This document shows positions 4,120 to 57,474 of a DNA stretch of 64,000 nucleotides, piece by piece. Numbering within the stretch: position 1 is the stretch's first letter; each line of letters starts with the position of its first letter. Origin of the DNA: Octopus vulgaris. Taxonomy: Eukaryota. Location of the stretch: assembly GCA_951406725.2 (NCBI GenBank), contig OX597817.1, positions 70,122,001 through 70,186,000 on the forward strand, written 5' to 3'. A program made the translations under genes and the position numbers. Under the pieces are notes generated by a model. That model had not been told where the DNA came from, did not search any database, and was given only the letters and a program-made list of their open reading frames with translations.

Positions 4120-5265
4120 CTAAGAGGAGGGGGCTGTGCTGAGTCCGTGTGGGGTTAGAGTTCGTAGAAGGAATATGAACCGTTGTTCCAAGTGAAGCCT
4201 AGATTGGGGAGAGCCGTTGTGTGGGGCAAGACCAAACACCGAGATGTCATCGGGGGAATGGCTGGCAGAGCGGAAGTGCCGTGCGACGGGAGAATTGGAA
4301 AATAGACGAACATCCCGCAGATGCTCGGTGAATCGGTCTGACAACCGGCGTCCCGTCTGTCCTATATACAGCATCCTGCAGCGGTTGCATTTAATGCAGT
4401 ATATGAGTCCAGACGAGGTGCACGTAAAGGAATACCCGATACGTACAGTTCGCCGGTTGGAACCGGTGACAGCAGTGGTGTTGGTGATGAAGGGGCAGGT
4501 GTTGCAGCGGGATCTGGAGCATGGGAAGGATCCGAGTGGGGCCGAGGGGTAAGAAGGGAGGGTGCTACGGACCAGGAGGTCGCGTAGATTCCGGGCTCGT
4601 TTGAAGGAGAACAGGGGTGGGTTGGGGAAAATGGGGTGGGTCGTGGAATCGAGCTGGAGACGACGGAAGGCACGAAGTATCTTCCGACGAAGGGGTAGAG
4701 TAGAGGGGTGGAAAAGGAGGGGAAAGGGGGTGCGGTTGGGGGGTGGGTGATTGGAAGGAGAAAGGGCGGTGGTGCGGTCGATGCGACGAGCGCGGGCGAG
4801 GGCGTTCAAGACCAGGGTAGGTGGGTATCCTCGAAGCCTGAACAGGCGGGCCAGGTATTGAGACTGGGTCTCGAAATCCTGCTCGCGGCTGCACAAGCGT
4901 CGGAGGCGGAGGAACTGGGAGTAGGGGATAGCCCGTTTGGTGTGGAAGGGATGGGAGGAGGAGAAGTTGAGATAGAGGTGGGAATCCGTGGGTTTGAAGA
5001 AGGCGGAGGTGGTGAGAGAGTGGGAGGGGTGGTCGATGCTGAGTGAGATATCTAGGAAGTTAACGGAAGTATTGGATATGGTGGAAGTGAATTGTAGAGA
5101 GGGGTGGAAGTTAGAGAGGAAAGAGATGAAGTGGCAGAGTTGTTCGCGGGAAAGGGAGGTGGCGCCTATACAGTCGTCTATGTAACGACCGTATAGTTCT
5201 GGGGTCGGCCCGGAGAATTGGGAGAATACTTGGGCCTCAATGTAGCCAACAAAGAGATTGGCGAA
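4120..5265 (-). pseudogene. PLE reverse transcriptase C-terminal half plus GIY-YIG endonuclease (open frame, 5'-truncated)
   Basis: FANLFVGYIE, YGRYIDDCIG, FLDI, KPTDSHLYLNFSSSHP, Cys linker CSRSRCNTC, and GLIYCIKC..LYIGQTGRRLSDRFTEH. Confidence 0.93.
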
Positions 5266-5524
5266 GTAAAGCGGTAATCATGTTCTATTGAAACGCATGT
5301 GTCTCTTGAGGTCAGCAGCTGCTGCCTTGAAAGTCTTTACATTTCATACATAGGATATATTGAATCTTTACTAACCACACACGCTCATACGTTTAACTTT
5401 TACGTACATAAACGTGTGCGTATATGTGTGTATGTGTGTGTATGCATGTGTGTATGTGTTTGTATCTGTGTGTATATATGTGTGTATGTATGTATGTATG
5501 TATATAAGTATGTATATATATATA

Positions 5525-9089: not shown

Positions 9090-11175
9090 GAAAGTTGGTT
9101 TGTGAAAGCACGTGGTTGAATATATAGAAAATAGTAAAAAGTGAAAAAACTACAGAAGGCTTAAAGGTTAAAAAATATATATATTTGCGTCAATATGTCT
9201 GAAGAATATTAAAAAGTTTTTTTTCCTTACAATGACATAGTTTAGAAGAAAGACCGGTTTCGCGTTTAGCTTTTCAAATTTCTTACGACGTTATGTTTAT
9301 GTTGAATAGAGTTATCGTTATGTTTATGTTCAAAAGAGTTCTAAATAAGGGGAGGTAATGAGTGATTTCTTCCGGTGTAAGGGAGATAATCGCTTAAAAT
9401 TTTTTTCCTTTACCTTGGTGTGAATTTCTCTGTATCAGTATGTTGGCATGGTTAAGTCTGGGCTTGTACTTTTCAATGAAAAATGTTTCCTTGTTTAGTC
9501 TAATTTATGTTGATGATCTGATAGCACATTGGTAAAATGGAAAGATTAAAAATTGTGGTAGTAGTTGCTTTGCGCATTTCTCAATGTGCTCACTAAAAGG
9601 TATCATTCTGTATTCTGGGAATGCAATCTGTTGTCGATGCAGTGTGCATCTACGTCTGAGTGATAGTCCCGTGGATCCCACGTAGTCTTGGTGGCAGCCC
9701 GAGCATTTTATGACATAAATTATGTTTTCAGAGGCACAAGTAAAATTAGATTTGATCTTGAATTTCTGTCCCTCTTTAAAGAGGAATTCTGATCCTTCTA
9801 GCAGGTTTGGACATGTTGCACAGTTCGATCTACCACATTTATTTTACTTTTGCATCCGTAATTTCAGAAAACAATTTTGCCTTTGTGAGAATCTTTTTAA
9901 GTGATTTAGGTTGTTTGTAGCTTTTAATGATTTGGTGTATGTTTAGAATTTCCTTTAATTTGGGGTCCTTATGAAGTATTGGTAAATTCTGGGTGATGAT
10001 GGTGAAGGCTTCTTTGTTTCTGGGGTTGTATGTAGATATGTAAGGTAGTATTTTCGGGGAAGGTGTGTTGTTGTGTTGAACTTTTCTTAAAGTTTCTATG
10101 TTGATTTCTGTTGCACGTCTGATCCCATCCTCTATGAGTTGAGCTGGGTAATGTCTGTCAATTAGGGTGTTTTTGAGTTCTTGCAGTCTAAAGTTCCTGG
10201 TATTTTGTTCTGACACTATTGTGCATATCCTTCTTGCAAGGTTGAAGGGGATGTTTGTTTTAGTGTGTCTTGGGTGGCATGAATTAAAAAGAAGGTATTG
10301 TTTGGCGTCTGTGGCTTTGTAAAAAATGTCTGTTTCTATTTTAAGGTTAATTTTTTTAATTAGTATATCCAAGAACGGGAGCTCCTTTTGGTTGTATTCC
10401 ATTGTGAACTGTATATTTGGGTTTATGCTGTTCAATAGGTTTTTAAATTTTAGGAGTTTATCTGTGTTTTCATTCCAGAGTATAAAACAATCGTCTAAGA
10501 ATCGTTTCCAATTCTCTTTTATGTATTGAGAAAGGGGGTTTCCAAAGATTGATAAAGATTCCTGGTAAATGATTATTTCCATGTAGCCCATTGTTAGGTT
10601 CGCAATGACTGGTGCTGCCCTTGTACCCATAGCAATTCCGGATTTTTGACGGTAAAATGTATTGTCAAACATGAAGTGGTTATTATGTAGGATGAATTCA
10701 ATTGATTTAGTAATGAATTCTTTACTGATTCTTTTTGGTATTTCTTCCGGAAATTGGTCCAGCCAGAACTGTATTGCCTCTAGTCCATAATTATGAGGTA
10801 TACTGGTATATAAGTTAACTACATCAAATGAAACCAGGATTGTTTCTTCCTTGGCTTTTTTGGAAGGTGGTTTAACATATCTAAGTCATCTCTGATATGG
10901 CTATCGATATGTTTAAGGAAGGGTTTCAGGAGGATGTCCATAAATAGACTTAGTCTGTGTGTTTCACAGGTTGGGCCAGCTACAATGGGTCGTAGTTTTA
11001 GGTCCCCCGGGTTAGGTGTAGACTAAGTCTATTTATGGACATCCTCCTGAAACCCTTCCTTAAACATATCGATAGCCATATCAGAGATGACTTAGATATG
11101 TTAAACCACCTTCCAAAAAAAGCCAAGGAAGAAACAATCTTGGTTTCATTTGATGTAGTTAACTTATATACCAGT
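9088..11175 (-). mobile_element. Penelope-like retroelement (RT plus GIY-YIG, frameshifted) with 5' inverted duplication
   Basis: SFDVVNLYT, YRQKSGIAMGTRAAPVIANL, RFLDDCF, CGRSNCATC and IIYVIKC..YVGSTG. Frameshifts near 9840 and 10860. 11020-11175 is an inverted copy of 10802-10956. Confidence 0.92.
9246..9284 (-). ncRNA. Minimal hammerhead ribozyme motif, U3-A8 variant
   Basis: AAGAAA-U-UUGAAAA-GC UAAAC GC-GAAA-CCGG-UC-UUUCUU in the PLE 3' UTR. Palindromic ACCGGU stem III, GUC triplet. Confidence 0.75.
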
Positions 11176-14579: not shown

Positions 14580-14612
<33 letters not shown>

Positions 14613-14619
<7 letters not shown>

Positions 14620-15601
14620 GTAAAAATAATTACAGACATGGACAAGAACATGAAACACCACAGAGACGACACAAGAACCACAGGACGGGACATTCGAAGC
14701 CCTCAGTCATCAGTCAAGAACCAGATCATCTTAGCAATTTCGGCTGATTAATCTTGAGATTGCTCCGATTTGGGCAGCCCGCCAAGGGAAATCTAAGCCA
14801 AGCGCATTAGATCCCCTGGAAGAAAGCTTCGAATATATACAACACGAGGACGGAAAACGAACGAAGTACACGAACAAAAATACAGAATACGTGACACCAA
14901 TAAGAATACAAAAACGTAAAAACAATAACGGTAAAAATAAAAAACAAAAAACAAAACAAAACCAGGACGTAGGACAAGGGTCTTTCGACAGGACGAGTTG
15001 AGTTTAGGGCTGGCTTATGAAGTTGTGCCTAATGGCCGCAGGGAGACGAACAAATACGTGTTGCTTCGGCGACTGCTGGAACGAAAAGGGCGCTCCGCAG
15101 TGGCTAGCGGTCACGTGAGAACAAAAGACAGGAGAAAGGGACAGATGAAAAGAGAGAGAAGGTGGACGAGGGAGGAGAAGAAAGAGACAGATCGAGGGGA
15201 CTGGAGGTGAGAGAGATAGAGAAACGTAGAAGGGGGGGGGAAAGACGGATGGAGAGGGAAAGAAAGGAAGGGGAATAAGGGAGGAGAGAGAGAGAGAGAG
15301 AAAGAGACAGATCAAGAGTCGTATCAATGCTAGAGAAAAAATATACTTATCGTATAAGGACAATTGTGGATACGTAGCCGCCGATTATATATGTAAACAG
15401 TAAAAATAATTACAGACATGGACAAGAACATGAAACACCACAGAGACGACACAAGAACCACAGGACGGGACATTCGAAGCCCTCAGTCATCAGTCAAGAA
15501 CCAGATCATCTTAGCAATTTCGGCTGATTAATCTTGAGATTGCTCCGATTTGGGCAGCCCGCCAAGGGAAATCTAAGCCAAGCGCATTAGATCCCCTGGA
15601 A
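14613..15601 (-). mobile_element. Non-coding partial-tandem element (780-bp period) in (TA)n
   Basis: Direct repeat 14613-14821 / 15393-15601, (TA)n on both sides, no ORF. Homologous to the 35-38 kb and 56.6 kb elements. Confidence 0.85.
14691..14835 (-). ncRNA. Candidate rearranged (pseudoknotted) hammerhead ribozyme; second, 5'-clipped copy at 15471-15601
   Basis: GGCUG..AGCAAU-C-UCAAGA-UUAAU-CAGCC-GAAAUUGCU..UCUUGA-CUGAUGA. Covariation with homologues. Confidence 0.65.
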
Positions 15602-32286: not shown

Positions 32287-32985
32287 GTGTATATTTAGGG
32301 CTAAAAACCATTATGTGGACAGCCATATGCTAGAAGTAGATCACATACGATTAAACTGCAAAGAAAGAATGTTCTCCAGAGAAAATCCAGCGGACACCAG
32401 AACATAGGCGGGCAAGACAGGTGAAAATTATATAAAAATCAAGAATTAATCGTATACCGGTTTCGTCTATCACCGAATAAACTACTTACGCAATCCTTCG
32501 TCCGTAGATTCATCAGTACGATCTTTCCAAAAGCAATATAATTTGTAAAACTAACCACCAGTTTTCTGTATAAAACCAGACACGTGCTTAGTTCTACCTA
32601 TTATATTGGGCTTAATTTCAAATGTCTGAGTTCTGAGTTCTGGAGGACTGATGAATCTACGGACGAAGGATTACGTAAGTAATTTATTCGGTGATAGACG
32701 AAACCGGTATACGATTAATTCTTGATTTTTATGTAATTTTCATCTGTCTTGCCCGCCTATGTTCTGGTGTCCGCTGGATTTTCTCTGGAGAACATTCTTT
32801 CTTTGTAGTTTAATCGTATGTGATCTACTTCTAACATATGGCTGTCCACATAGTGGTTTTTAGCCCTAAATATACACATGTATTGGAATTTTCTCTGATT
32901 TTTCAGATTTTTATATGCTAGGCTACTGGTTTTAACTTGATATTAATTAAATTAATATTCAATTTATCTCCCTCATTATTTAAAT
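32287..32985. mobile_element. Head-to-head inverted PLE pLTR pair
   Basis: Arms 32287-32517 / 32647-32877, containing a hammerhead motif. Microsatellite flanks. Confidence 0.85.
32449..32522 (-). ncRNA. Type I hammerhead ribozyme motif with extended stem II
   Basis: AUCGUA-CUGAUGA-AUCUA..UAGAC-GAAA-CCGG-UA-UACGAU with a perfect 6-bp stem I. The + copy at 32648-32715 lacks the 5' stem I strand. Confidence 0.85.
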
Positions 32986-34925: not shown

Positions 34926-34938
34926 ATATATATATATA

Positions 34939-35707
34939 ATCGTTGTTTTTCGTCCGCCGCCATAGGCATCGCCGATAAGGCTCCTTTCCTTGCGCCAGAG
35001 AAATAATTTGTTTGCTTGTTATCAGTCGTAAGACACTTGTTGTTGTTTTCACCGTTAATGCTTCTGTATTTCATGTTTCTGTATTCCATTATTTTTTTGT
35101 GTTTTTTTATATTCGTCCCTTTTGCTGTCCTGGTGTCCGTATGCATTCGATCCTTCTTCCAGGAAATCTACGCTCCCAGCTTAGTTTTTCTAATGCTCGT
35201 TGCTTAGTTTTTCTTGGAGGGCTGGCCGTGATCTAGTAATCTCAAGATTAATCAGCCGAAATTACTACGATGATCCGGTTCTTGACTGAAGACTGAGGGT
35301 TTCGAATGTCCTGTCCGTGTTTATTGTATCGTCTTCTAAGAGTTATACGTTCTTGTCCATGTTGTATTTTTCTACATACCTTAACATATATTCCAGGCGC
35401 CACGTACCCTCTTAACATTAATGTGAGCACATATTCTTAATAACTGGTACGACTCTTTGTTTGTCTCTCTCTCTCTCTCACTTTTACTTGATCTGTCCCC
35501 TTCTCTCTCTACTCATCCTCTTTTTCTCTTCTCTTTCCTCTGATCCTTTGGTCTAATCTTCCACTACCCTCCTAATTCTTTGTCGCGCTCTGCACTCACA
35601 GGTCAATCTTCGACACCCATCCCTTCTCCTCTCTGATTCCTTCTTTCTCTCTCTTCTCTCTCTTTGTTGCGTTTGTCCCTCCTCTCTCTCTCTCCTCTCT
35701 CTCTCTC

Positions 35708-35738
<31 letters not shown>

Positions 35739-36573
35739 TCCGTTGCTTCTCTTTCTTTTCTTTTCTCTCTTCTCTGTCACGTGACTGCTGGCCGAAATCT
35801 GCCTTTCAGCTTCTGACCAGTGTCGTGTTAACATCGTTGTTTTTCGTCCGCCGCTATAGGCATCGCCGATAAGGCTCCTTTCCTTGCGCCAGAGAAATAA
35901 TTTGTTTGCTTGTTATCAGTCGTAAGACACTTGTTGTTGTTTTCACCGTTAATGCTTCTGTATTTCATGTTTCTGTATTCCATTATTTTTTTGTGTTTTT
36001 TTTTATATTCGTCCCTTTTGCTGTCCTGGTGTCCGTATGCATTCGATCCTTCTTCCAGGAAATCTACGCTCCCAGCTTAGTTTTTCTAATGCTCGTTGCT
36101 TAGTTTTTCTTGGAGGGCTGGCCGTGATCTAGTAATCTCAAGATTAATCAGCCGAAATTACTACGATGATCCGGTTCTTGACTGAAGACTGAGGGTTTCG
36201 AATGTCCTGTCCGTGTTTATTGTATCGTCTTCTAAGAGTTATACGTTCTTGTCCATGTTGTATTTTTCTACATACCTTAACATATATTCCAGGCGCCACG
36301 TACCCTCTTAACATTAATGTGAGCACATATTCTTAATAACTGGTACGACTCTTTGTTTGTCTCTCTCTCTCTCTCACTTTTACTTGATCTGTCCCCTTCT
36401 CTCTCTACTCATCCTCTTTTTCTCTTCTCTTTCCTCTGATTCTTTGGTCTAATCTTCCACTACCCTCCTATTTCTTTGTCTCGCTCTGCACTCACAGGTC
36501 AATCTTCGACACCCATCCCTTCTCCTCTCTGATTCCTTCTTTCTCTCTCTTCTCTCTCTTTGTTGCGTTTGTC

Positions 36574-36636
<63 letters not shown>

Positions 36637-37468
36637 GTTGCTTCTCTTTCTTTTCTTTTCTCTCTTCTCTGTCACGTGACTGCTGGCCGAAATCTGCCTT
36701 TCAGCTTCTGACCAGCGTCGTGTTAACATCGTTGTTTTTCGTCCGCCGCTATAGGCATCGCCGATAAGGCTCCTTTCCTTGCGCCAGAGAAAAATTTGTT
36801 TGCTTGTTATCAGTCGTAAGACACTTGTTGTTGTTTTCACCGTTAATGCTTCTGTATTTCATGTTTCTGTATTCCATTATTTTTTTTTGTTTTTTTTTAT
36901 ATTCGTCCCTTTTGCTGTCCTGGTGTCCGTATGCATTCGATCCTTCTTCCAGGAAATCTACGCTCCCAGCTTAGTTTTTCTAATGCTCGTTGCTTAGTTT
37001 TTCTTGGAGGGCTGGCCGTGATCTAGTAATCTCAAGATTAATCAGCCGAAATTACTACGATGATCCGGTTCTTGACTGAAGACTGAGGGTTTCGAATGTC
37101 CTGTCCGTGTTTATTGTATCGTCTTCTAAGAGTTATACGTTCTTGTCCATGTTGTATTTTTCTACATACCTTAACATATATTCCAGGCGCCACGTACCCT
37201 CTTAACATTAATGTGAGCACATATTCTTAATAACTGGTACGACTCTTTGTTTGTCTCTCTCTCTCTCTCACTTTTACTTGATATGTCCCCTTCTCTCTCT
37301 ACTCATCCTCTTTTTCTCTTCTCTTTCCTCTGATTCTTTGGTCTAATCTTCCACTACCCTCCTAATTCTTTGTCTCGCTCTGCACTCACAGGTCAATCTT
37401 CGACACCCATCCCTTCTCCTCTCTGATTCCTTCTTTCTCTCTCTTCTCTCTCTTTGTTGCGTTTGTCC

Positions 37469-37504
<36 letters not shown>

Positions 37505-38034
37505 GTTGCTTCTCTTTCTTTTCTTTTCTCTCTTCTCTGTCACGTGACTGCTGGCCGAAATCTGCCTTTCAGCTTCTGACCAGCGTCGTGTTAACATCGT
37601 TGTTTTTCGTCCGCCGCTATAGGCATCGCCGATAAGGCTCCTTTCCTTGCGCCAGAGAAATAATTTGTTTGCTTGTTATCAGTCGTAAGACACTTGTTGT
37701 TGTTTTCACCGTTAATGCTTCTGTATTTCATGTTTCTGTATTCCATTATTTTTTGTGTTTTTTTTATATTCGTCCCTTTTGCTGTCCTGGTGTCCGTATG
37801 CATTCGATCCTTCTTCCAGGAAATCTACGCTCCCAGCTTAGTTTTTCTAATGCTCGTTGCTTAGTTTTTCTTGGAGGGCTGGCCGTGATCTAGTAATCTC
37901 AAGATTAATCAGCCGAAATTACTACGATGATCCGGTTCTTGACTGAAGACTGAGGGTTTCGAATGTCCTGTCCGTGTTTATTGTATCGTCTTCTAAGAGT
38001 TATACGTTCTTGTCCATGTATTTTTCTACATACC

Positions 38035-38038
<4 letters not shown>
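34939..38038 (+). repeat. Tandem array of 3.5 near-identical non-coding units (894, 895, 868 bp) inserted in (TA)n
   Basis: Units start at 34939, 35833, 36728 and 37596. They differ mainly in (CT)n and poly-T length. Confidence 0.95.
35144..35308 (+). ncRNA. Candidate rearranged (pseudoknotted) hammerhead ribozyme, one per tandem unit
   Basis: GGCUGG..UAGUAAU-C-UCAAGA-UUAA-UCAGCC-GAAAUUACUA..UCUUGA-CUGAAGA. Confidence 0.65.
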
Positions 38039-56611: not shown

Positions 56612-56627
56612 TTTTATATATATATAT

Positions 56628-57474
56628 AAAAAATACAAAAATGGGATAAGAACGCAAAAAACATCCGGACAGACGATACAAAGAAAACAAGGACGGGTCA
56701 TTCGGAGTTTTCTTTCCTCGGTCGAGTTCCAGATTATCTTTGTAATTTCGGCTGGTTATACTCGAGATTGCTCCAATCTGGCCAGCCCCAAGGAAAAACT
56801 AAGCTAAAAGCATTAGATTCCTTGGAAGAAAGTAGCGAATGTATACGAAAACAAGATCAGAAAAAAAACAGAGAAATGGTACACAAATACATATAACAGG
56901 ATATTAACAACGGGTATCTTTCGACTAAGGACGAATTAAATTAAGCTGGACATAAGATTTGACAGACACAGGGAGGAATATAGATGTTGTACGGATGGTA
57001 GTCGAACCAAGAAAGAAAGGTCAGGCTTGGCCGAACACTGATCACGTGGGGAGAGAAGAGAGAGAGGTAGAGTCAGAAGGATAGAAAAATTAAGGAGGGG
57101 CGAGAAAAAAATGAAAGGGACAGAGTGAAGTAAAAGAGGAGGGAAGTTGAGCATGAAGAGAAGGCCAAGAAATGTGAGAGAAGGGAAACAAAAGAACGTA
57201 GAGTGGAATGAACGAAGTAAGTGTGAAGAAGCTGATAGAAAGAAAGAAAGAATGAAAGAATAGAACGATTGATAGAGTCGTACAAGATTTAGATACATAT
57301 TTACTTACATACAAGAGACAAGTGTACGTACGCCGCTATATTTTTTATATATATAAAATACAAAATGGGACAAGAACGCAAAACATCCAGGCAGGTGATA
57401 CAGAAAAGGTACAACAAAACATCCAGACAGACGATACAAAGAAAACAAGGACGGGTCATTCGGTGTTTTCTTTC
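56628..57474 (-). mobile_element. Non-coding partial-tandem element, homologue of the 14.6 and 35 kb elements
   Basis: Direct repeat ~56628-56716 / ~57355-57474. Shared GGCG..ACGTA, TACGACTCT and CACGTGA motifs. Confidence 0.75.
56699..56841 (-). ncRNA. Candidate rearranged (pseudoknotted) hammerhead ribozyme
   Basis: GGCUGG-CCAGAUU..GCAAU-C-UCGAGU-AUAA-CCAGCC-GAAAUUAC..AAUCUGG-A-ACUCGA-CCGAGGA. Confidence 0.6.

Follow-up and report, generated by a model that had tools for sequence, protein, structure and literature searches.

Does a motif that recurs within this stretch of octopus DNA encode a self-cleaving RNA of the hammerhead class and, if so, are its strands joined in an order that other hammerheads do not have? 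The window, that is, the whole 64-kb stretch analysed (positions 70122001-70186000, from a 2.8-Gb genome in 227 contigs), is microsatellite-rich with ~35% GC. A single descriptor finds seven copies of the motif in it, four on the forward strand (C17 at 35241, 36137, 37031 and 37898) and three on the reverse strand (C17 at 14758, 15538 and 56766). Copies, stems and predicted C17 positions all agree with an earlier note on this DNA, and every element that it had described, namely stem III, stem I, stem II with its G10.1-C11.1 pair, a linker, a strut helix and two extra helices, is present. The hammerhead-class core set is there as well (C3-U4-G5-A6-N7-G8-A9, G12-A13-A14, A15.1-U16.1, the NUH triplet and G10.1-C11.1), the full consensus being found in six of the seven copies and a U4C change in one. 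The three window families are called A, B and C, and in the first copy of family A the parts are arranged as follows.

35144..35156, forward strand: 5' strand of helix P0, outer CAUUCGA and inner CCUUC (from the sequence and from pair counts in 24 young copies)
35159..35217, forward strand: hairpin Pa, CCAGGAAA/UUUCUUGG (from the sequence)
35220..35225, forward strand: 5' strand of stem II from G10.1, the second half of a split block C
35226..35233, forward strand: 5' strand of the strut helix, equivalent to helix 'I' of type SGC
35234..35247, forward strand: block S, with the 5' strand of stem III, C17 (35241; cut predicted on its 3' side) and the 5' strand of stem I
35248..35251, forward strand: linker UUAA, 4 nt, joining the tips of stems I and II
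35252..35267, forward strand: block G, with the 3' strand of stem II, G12-A13-A14-A15.1 and the 3' strand of stem III
35272..35278, forward strand: 3' strand of the strut helix
35280..35292, forward strand: 3' strand of stem I and C3-A9 (CUGAAGA), the first half of block C
35295..35308, forward strand: 3' strand of P0, beginning 2 nt past A9

From 5' to 3' the RNA thus runs through the P0 5' strand, the Pa hairpin, the stem II 5' strand (from G10.1), the strut, the cut-site block and the 4-nt linker, and then through the GAAA block, the strut again, the stem I 3' strand with CUGANGA (to A9) and the P0 3' strand. Stem II has its 5' strand on the upstream side of the cut site, not after CUGANGA; A9 and G10.1 are not adjacent in the chain, and P0 and Pa are inserted between them, so that the core is opened at this step. 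The blocks C, G and S are those into which the hammerhead was divided by Eckert 2023 (PMC10085705), and our statements on that paper refer to the portions of it drawn on here. Types I, II and III have the order C>G>S, or a rotation of it, around a nested three-way junction; the order in the octopus motif is S>G>C. Among the non-circularly permuted forms already known, the natural cleaving types are SGC and CSG, with one weak GCS, and in type SGC stems I and II are linked by 3-4 nt and a strut helix is required for activity (PMC10085705). The octopus helices follow each other as II, strut, III, I, II, III, strut, I, which is an exact rotation of both SGC with strut and CSG with strut, the rotation point falling inside block C. 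The best explanation, in which we have high confidence even when the retroelement cycle proposed below is counted in, is a hammerhead of the S>G>C cyclic class that has been opened at a new point.

With type SGC (HRIMA-1 and the SGC variant; PMC10085705) the motif shares the succession of cut-site block, GAAA and CUGANGA in a pseudoknotted core, the short link between stems I and II (4 nt here, 3-4 nt there), the strut joining the other strands and, with the SGC variant, a GAUUA-like stretch at the tip of stem I. It differs in that the published rows have the stem II strand 0-1 nt past CUGANGA, whereas here the stem II and strut strands stand at the 5' end and P0 and Pa are inserted; the published RNAs come from metatranscriptomes, whereas an animal genome here holds thousands of copies. 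An intact block C, with the stem II strand 1-2 nt past A9, is the defining feature of type SGC and is found in 0 of 44 copies scored. The two type-CSG sequences of PMC10085705 take the same path through stem II, a 7-bp strut, a 2-nt link, stem III, stem I, UUAA, stem II and GAAA, with G10.1 and G12 spaced by 37 nt versus 38 nt in octopus. In type CSG, however, CUGAUGA directly precedes G10.1 and the chain is open after stem III, whereas in octopus the strut holds stem III as well and the chain opens within block C. In the PK hammerhead and the pistol ribozyme (PMC11300833), too, the hammerhead core bears an additional helix and the region of stem II contains a pseudoknot; there, however, G10.1 follows A9, a loop pseudoknot replaces helix II and the connectivity is another one.

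The earlier note had called the topology unrecognised, and this holds in part: the S>G>C order, the linker and the strut had been published as type SGC (PMC10085705), while two points are new as far as the literature searches reach: a core split at A9/G10.1, where two helices are inserted, and its presence in retroelements of an animal genome. In full-text searches, whose scope leaves out most subscription journals, 'type-SGC' occurs only in PMC10085705, and neither a split block C nor such a ribozyme in an animal genome was found. The portions drawn on of PMC13725137, PMC10162972, PMC12192606, PMC3088659 and PMC8557442 describe no such architecture, and the main text of the 2026 octopus repeat annotation (PMC13282606), to the extent available, mentions no ribozyme, hammerhead or retrozyme. 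According to PMC10085705, CUGAnGA and its stems are separated by 1-2 nt at most in all known alignments, the block was taken as uninterruptible, and the search descriptors for SGC and CSG encode an unbroken block C; its rearranged ribozymes came from assembled metatranscriptomes, with a single GCS candidate from a bacterial genome. The comparison with the Rfam hammerhead models that the earlier note had proposed gives 0 matches (Rfam 15, 34930-35850, E<=10), and over the whole window at E<=5 the matches listed (150 of 435) are microsatellite look-alikes only. Viral contigs give 2 + 26 pattern matches, the 2 being without fitting stems; no stem I score exceeds 3.5 of 5 in the 23 of the 26 that were parsed or in 53 metagenome-contig matches, and we therefore regard the viral and metagenome matches as chance. 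An HDV-like reading of CGAAUG was rejected, that strand being fully paired in P0.

Chance does not account for the octopus motif itself, since its full pattern has at least 4,313 exact genomic matches (2,117 + 2,196), as against 0 for a reversed-pattern control. First-look DNA searches with the three window families gave 1,390, 2,339 and 795 candidates, and all of the 40 scored from each matched; a random 200-kb genome sample holds a single copy, too small a number to give a density. Of 200 shuffles of the 172-nt family A motif, none folds as stably as the motif itself (z -3.3), and for family B the folding energy is -52.6 kcal/mol on the proposed strand versus -43.2 kcal/mol on the opposite one. 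The families in the window differ in stem I, UCAAGA/UCUUGA versus UCGAGU/ACUCGA, and their copies have GGCUG/CAGCC with G10.1-C11.1 as stem II.

Families with other stem sequences also bear on the fold. Loose patterns that fixed only the cut-site, GAAA and CUGANGA blocks and left the upstream stem II strand unconstrained found four older families, Z, Y1, Y2 and Y3, besides the young families A-D. Their copies are decayed, and DNA query matches in them start only at the cut-site region and go onward; compensatory changes affect all three stems and the strut in them. In a 38-row alignment of five family groups, from which six gapped or decayed rows had been dropped, stems I and III are 90.2% paired and have 65 two-sided changes, compared with 24.2 +/- 3.7 after shuffling and at most 17 when slid, and five of the six stem I pairs covary. 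Because MAFFT misregistered the upstream strands across families, stem II, the strut, Pa and P0 were scored per sequence. Among 24 young copies, two-sided changes occur in 13 of 53 pairs, distributed over P0, Pa (partly misregistered in this count), the strut, stem III and stem I. P0 contributes such changes in 5 of its 13 pairs: the helix CAUUCG/CGAAUG, which had been put forward as covarying, is nearly invariant in the three window families, whereas its extension does covary. The strut, 91.7% paired in these 24 copies with mismatches in families A and B, reads CCAGAUU/AAUCUGG, CCGGAUC/GAUCCGG, CCAGAGG/CCUCUGG or ACCAAAA/UUUUGGU according to family.

Stem II decides where the core is opened, and here the window alone could not support the proposed pairing because GGCUG/CAGCC is invariant in its families; the support comes from older families elsewhere. 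It was scored in 44 copies, of which 12 represent the young families and 32 come from the 41 old candidates listed, with L218, L239, L244 and L247 left out for want of the upstream part and L176, L252, L258, L267 and L268 as not assignable. The upstream candidate was a strand starting with G, 35-40 nt before G12 and paired with the strand preceding GAAA, taken in the best-pairing register within a 6-nt window. At least four of five pairs form with the upstream strand in 28 of the 44 copies and with the strand after A9 in none; the mean scores are 3.95 and 2.19, respectively, and same-sized shifted windows give 1.07-2.43. Family Z, which is decayed, scores 3.11 with its own strands versus 3.24 with those of Y1. 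Pair 10.2-11.2 was compared in the 39 copies with a score of 3 or more: it is G-C in 12/12 young, A-U in 7/7 Y1 and C-G in 4/4 Y2 copies, and U-A or C-G in 8/13 Z copies, while pair 10.5-11.5 switches from G-C to C-G between families. Throughout the young families A-D stem II is invariant; targeted searches for a compensatory subfamily within them found none, and their double mutants (22 and 1) are compatible with drift, 11 of the 22 at 10.3/11.3 being complementary and 10 of those plain transitions. Cross-family covariation lends good support to the fold and to its reading as a hammerhead; it rests on about five lineages, since related copies are not independent events.

The ribozyme copies of the window sit in three insertions, each with a small hairpin upstream of the cut site.

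34939..38038, forward strand: family A insertion, ~3.5 non-coding units with four ribozyme copies
14606..15601, reverse strand: family B insertion, a 780-nt unit and a 216-nt terminal repeat with two ribozyme copies
56615..57474, reverse strand: family C insertion, a 758-nt unit and a short repeat with one full ribozyme (C17 56766)
35025-35034 (forward strand), 14980-14989 and 56916-56925 (both reverse strand): GNRA-tetraloop hairpin of 3 bp upstream of the ribozyme (from the sequence)

The cut sites of the family A insertion are spaced by 896, 894 and 867 nt; those of family B are at 15538 and 14758, and (TA)n lies on both sides of either insertion. The family A insertion ends ~140 nt beyond its last C17, and this end is a general one: among the loci retrieved, 30 of family A and 30 of family B with some overlap, the 3' end is at an identical unit position in 28/30 and 28/30, ~140-150 nt past C17 and with (TA)n following in nearly every case. 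Insertions start at scattered 5' positions and span between a third of a unit and 3.5 units; for family C, which is too diverged, the end-finding script reported ends in 17 of 30. Units measure 755-1,004 nt and are ~69% U+C. A protein-coding unit was rejected, as no ATG open reading frame longer than 101 aa exists on either strand of 23 distinct family A and B units (longest per unit, 47-101 aa). The Pa loop of family A contains a 22-nt duplication. The GNRA loop, GUAA in A and GAAA in B and C, precedes the cut site by 190-230 nt (A and B) or ~150 nt (C) amid surroundings that align poorly, and it could be a tertiary docking loop. Contigs of sequencing runs that bear three other organism labels (X8, X18 and X19) also contain parts of the element.

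In their dispersed non-coding tandem units with one ribozyme each, these insertions resemble the non-LTR retrozymes (PMC7229834; Li 2026 preprint, 10.64898/2026.07.22.740005), with which they also share GC below 50%, thousands of dispersed copies and a proposed Penelope-dependent mobility. Retrozymes, however, have type I hammerheads, which the octopus units do not, and are typically 170-400 nt long (up to 972 nt in the preprint), compared with ~760-900 nt and a rearranged ribozyme for the octopus units, which are known here from genomic sequence. In the preprint, which uses type I descriptors only, animal retrozymes are argued to be non-autonomous Penelope derivatives. The hammerheads in Penelope pLTRs (PMC4209133; PMC8557442) differ again, being minimal motifs of type I whose stem III is palindromic, and unlike an autonomous Penelope-like element the octopus units have no RT or GIY-YIG frame; some Naiad elements carry core halves that fit no descriptor (PMC8557442). 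The octopus motif would work as a type-SGC hammerhead in a retrozyme-like element, each minus one defining feature.

We propose the following cycle for these elements. The RNA would cleave itself after AUC (AUA in the older families) by hammerhead chemistry, a capacity which we consider very likely; both triplets are active in another hammerhead (PMC1636495). With the ribozyme ~140-150 nt from the 3' end of the unit, tandem transcripts would be cut to unit length, and the more than 30 base pairs of P0, the strut and stems II and III may clamp the ends of the unit and favour their ligation to a circle, tRNA ligase being the ligase proposed for animal retrozymes (PMC7229834). We slightly favour such a circular RNA intermediate. 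A nicked (TA)n target would then prime reverse transcription at an internal AUAUA of the unit; this would account for a 3' end that is always at one point past the cut site, and for insertions exceeding one unit. A borrowed RT/endonuclease would copy stretches of less than one unit up to several units into microsatellites of (TA)n. On present indications the helper is rather a (TA)n-targeting Penelope-like element than anything else. The genome contains many 781-aa open frames with GIY-YIG, the one examined being an RT with GIY-YIG, and in copies of this family a canonical type I hammerhead is followed by a terminal (TA)n. It is a helper candidate only, since nothing but a U-rich tail is common to it and the units: in 30 of 148 GIY-YIG matches, units A-C find no meaningful similarity beyond that tail.

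The same 30 loci bear on an alternative in which there is no circular stage, the units being copied from linear read-through transcripts or representing terminal repeats of an unseen autonomous retroelement. This we consider possible but doubtful. The 5' truncation, partial tandems and microsatellite targeting seen here are the signature of Penelope-like mobilisation, and partial tandems with a (TA)n bias are typical of Penelope-like elements too (PMC8557442); moreover, the window array is a mix of two alleles that also segregate between loci, which counts against a single circular template. Yet 0 of the 60 family A and B loci extend 5' into a common longer element, and the young-family motif lies within ~1.5 kb of GIY-YIG in none of the 30 loci, so that an autonomous partner carrying the motif was rejected for these. 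Tandem copies, furthermore, have private variants in common (L018, L072 and L082), and divergence within loci (0.0063 in A, 0.0059 in B) is lower than between them (0.0098 and 0.0092). A GIY-YIG match adjoining copy L174 showed no link to the ribozyme element. A viroid-like genome with two ribozymes finds no support, there being no antisense CUGANGA in units A-C, whose circular folds are 40-45% paired and not rod-like.

The next question is how the opened core is closed. We propose that a four-way junction of A9, P0, Pa and G10.1 does so: P0 reaches to 0-2 nt from A9, with 2-nt spacers in family A, one spare nucleotide in L254 and none in family C, L256 (Y1), L262 (Y2) or L242 (Z). Old families have a different, shorter hairpin, which in 13 of 27 copies leaves 0-1 nt before G10.1 (shifted controls, 0-3 copies), and the bases past A9 pair with those just 5' of it. 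From general RNA structure, stem II may be stacked on the A9-G12 pair along the unbroken C11.1-G12 strand, and P0 most likely on Pa. Crystallography of the PK hammerhead shows A9 in a sheared pair with G12 (PMC11300833). The A9/G10.1 step appears to be a natural soft spot, because one extra nucleotide is common there both in the published SGC rows and in Penelope hammerheads (PMC4209133).

The strut is linked to stem III by 0-2 nt on one strand and 4-6 nt on the other, and the shorter tie may strain a monomer. A strand-swapped dimer could then be the active form, so that only tandem transcripts would be cut: the strut and stem III of each copy would make one long hairpin, whose loop would pair with the stem II and I/CUGANGA strands of the other copy. 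Strut and stem III are indeed joined on both strands, yet their ends are far apart in the standard fold, a puzzle like that raised for some SGC RNAs by Eckert 2023 (PMC10085705); partial tandems are common, and dimeric cleavage is known from Penelope and amphibian retrozyme hammerheads (PMC4209133, PMC7229834). Two points make us think this unlikely. Type-CSG RNAs, which follow an equal path with 6 bp of stem II strand, a 7-bp strut and 2 nt leading to stem III, cleaved as single constructs, their oligomeric state not being given, and stem III is long and non-palindromic here, unlike that of the dimeric forms.

A genuine fold that has no catalytic activity, or cleaves very slowly, and serves a helper reverse transcriptase as a recognition or packaging signal is, to our mind, improbable. 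The insertions do cross the cut site and end 140-150 nt past it, which means that the template was uncut or re-ligated, and the published SGC and CSG rates are low, 0.004-0.19 per min (PMC10085705). A U4C sub-lineage of family C has also been amplified. The copy at 56.7 kb carries CCGAGGA and one stem III mismatch, as had been noted before, but both are minority states of its family: its 29 parsed close relatives, a sample (loci L031-L060) biased towards the window copy, have CUGAGGA in 15 and C at position 4 in 11. In hammerheads U4C lowers activity in vitro and is tolerated by a viroid. Against a silent fold stand the conservation of the core nucleotides in five family groups while every stem is replaced, and a triplet that is always AUH; canonical Penelope elements likewise have their ribozyme within the copied 3' region. 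An ordinary type-SGC ribozyme, with stem II drawn from the bases after CUGANGA and the upstream GGCUG incidental, is hardly credible: it shares core order, linker and strut with the motif, and in families A and B four bases past A9 could pair out of register, but a fitting strand after A9 is absent from all 44 copies, the bases there differ between families and pair with P0, and the stem II scores and the changes at 10.2-11.2 already contradict it.

The split hammerhead core that we favour bears on how such ribozymes are classified. The 2023 scheme derives six possible hammerheads from an inseparable unit of CUGANGA and the stem II strand (PMC10085705), and the octopus family breaks that assumption through natural covariation and thousands of copies; non-circular permutations are thereby carried from soil and spruce metatranscriptomes to an animal genome and tied to a retrotransposition cycle. 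Taken as one claim, it is on the whole probable that we are dealing with a seventh natural hammerhead architecture, whose non-circularly permuted core, opened at A9/G10.1 and re-closed by a four-way junction, has been kept through at least five diverged animal retroelement lineages as a self-clamping, possibly dimer-only, device for cutting and circularisation. If true, no earlier non-circular permutation backed by covariation would be known from a cellular genome; the six-permutation scheme would be incomplete, and descriptor screens would have missed whole ribozyme families in animal genomes. An RNA of ~170 nt would then bear on whether the A9/G10.1 step can carry whole domains, as a new graft point for switches, on monomer versus dimer folding of strut-tied cores, and on the circularisation and mobilisation of animal retrozymes.

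Several other repeats were observed alongside these families. A separate, apparently abundant one (L115, L116, L123, L128 and L134, ~1500-1600 in matched orientation) carries a minimal hammerhead of canonical type I. Its stem II, too, reads GGCUG/CAGCC, and A9 and G10.1 are separated by an extra base; this repeat may share descent with the young families or have converged on them. Another (L267, L268 and G000:C4:33750807) has GAAA and CUGANGA in S>G>C spacing with a longer spacer, and L176:1570-1640 resembles Y1 and Z but has an AUC triplet. The young Penelope-like family with intact 781-aa RT and GIY-YIG frames (L173:3245-5587, forward strand; L151, L152, L154 and L161) has an upstream 359-aa open frame, CCAAT/TGACGT-rich repeats in its 3' region and a U3-A8 variant of the type I hammerhead. 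In L185, two ribozyme copies lie ~450 nt apart on opposite strands, L182 being similarly nearby and inverted, which recalls the inverted 5'-truncated copies of Penelope-like insertions. Outside the ribozyme, units A-C have in common CACGTGA, a GC-rich box with ACGTA, and TACGACTCT, flanking a long pyrimidine tract (e.g. window 35808-35816, 35396-35409 and 35448-35457), and these motifs are possible promoter elements. The window also contains, on its reverse strand, a 348-aa open frame at 9842-10885 that resembles a fragment of a Penelope-type RT and matches Pfam RVT_1, and a Penelope-type RT-like frame of 385 aa at 4123-5277 with no Pfam match. A long imperfect inverted repeat at 32462-32703, which gives a weak microRNA-precursor match, is probably a MITE-like element.
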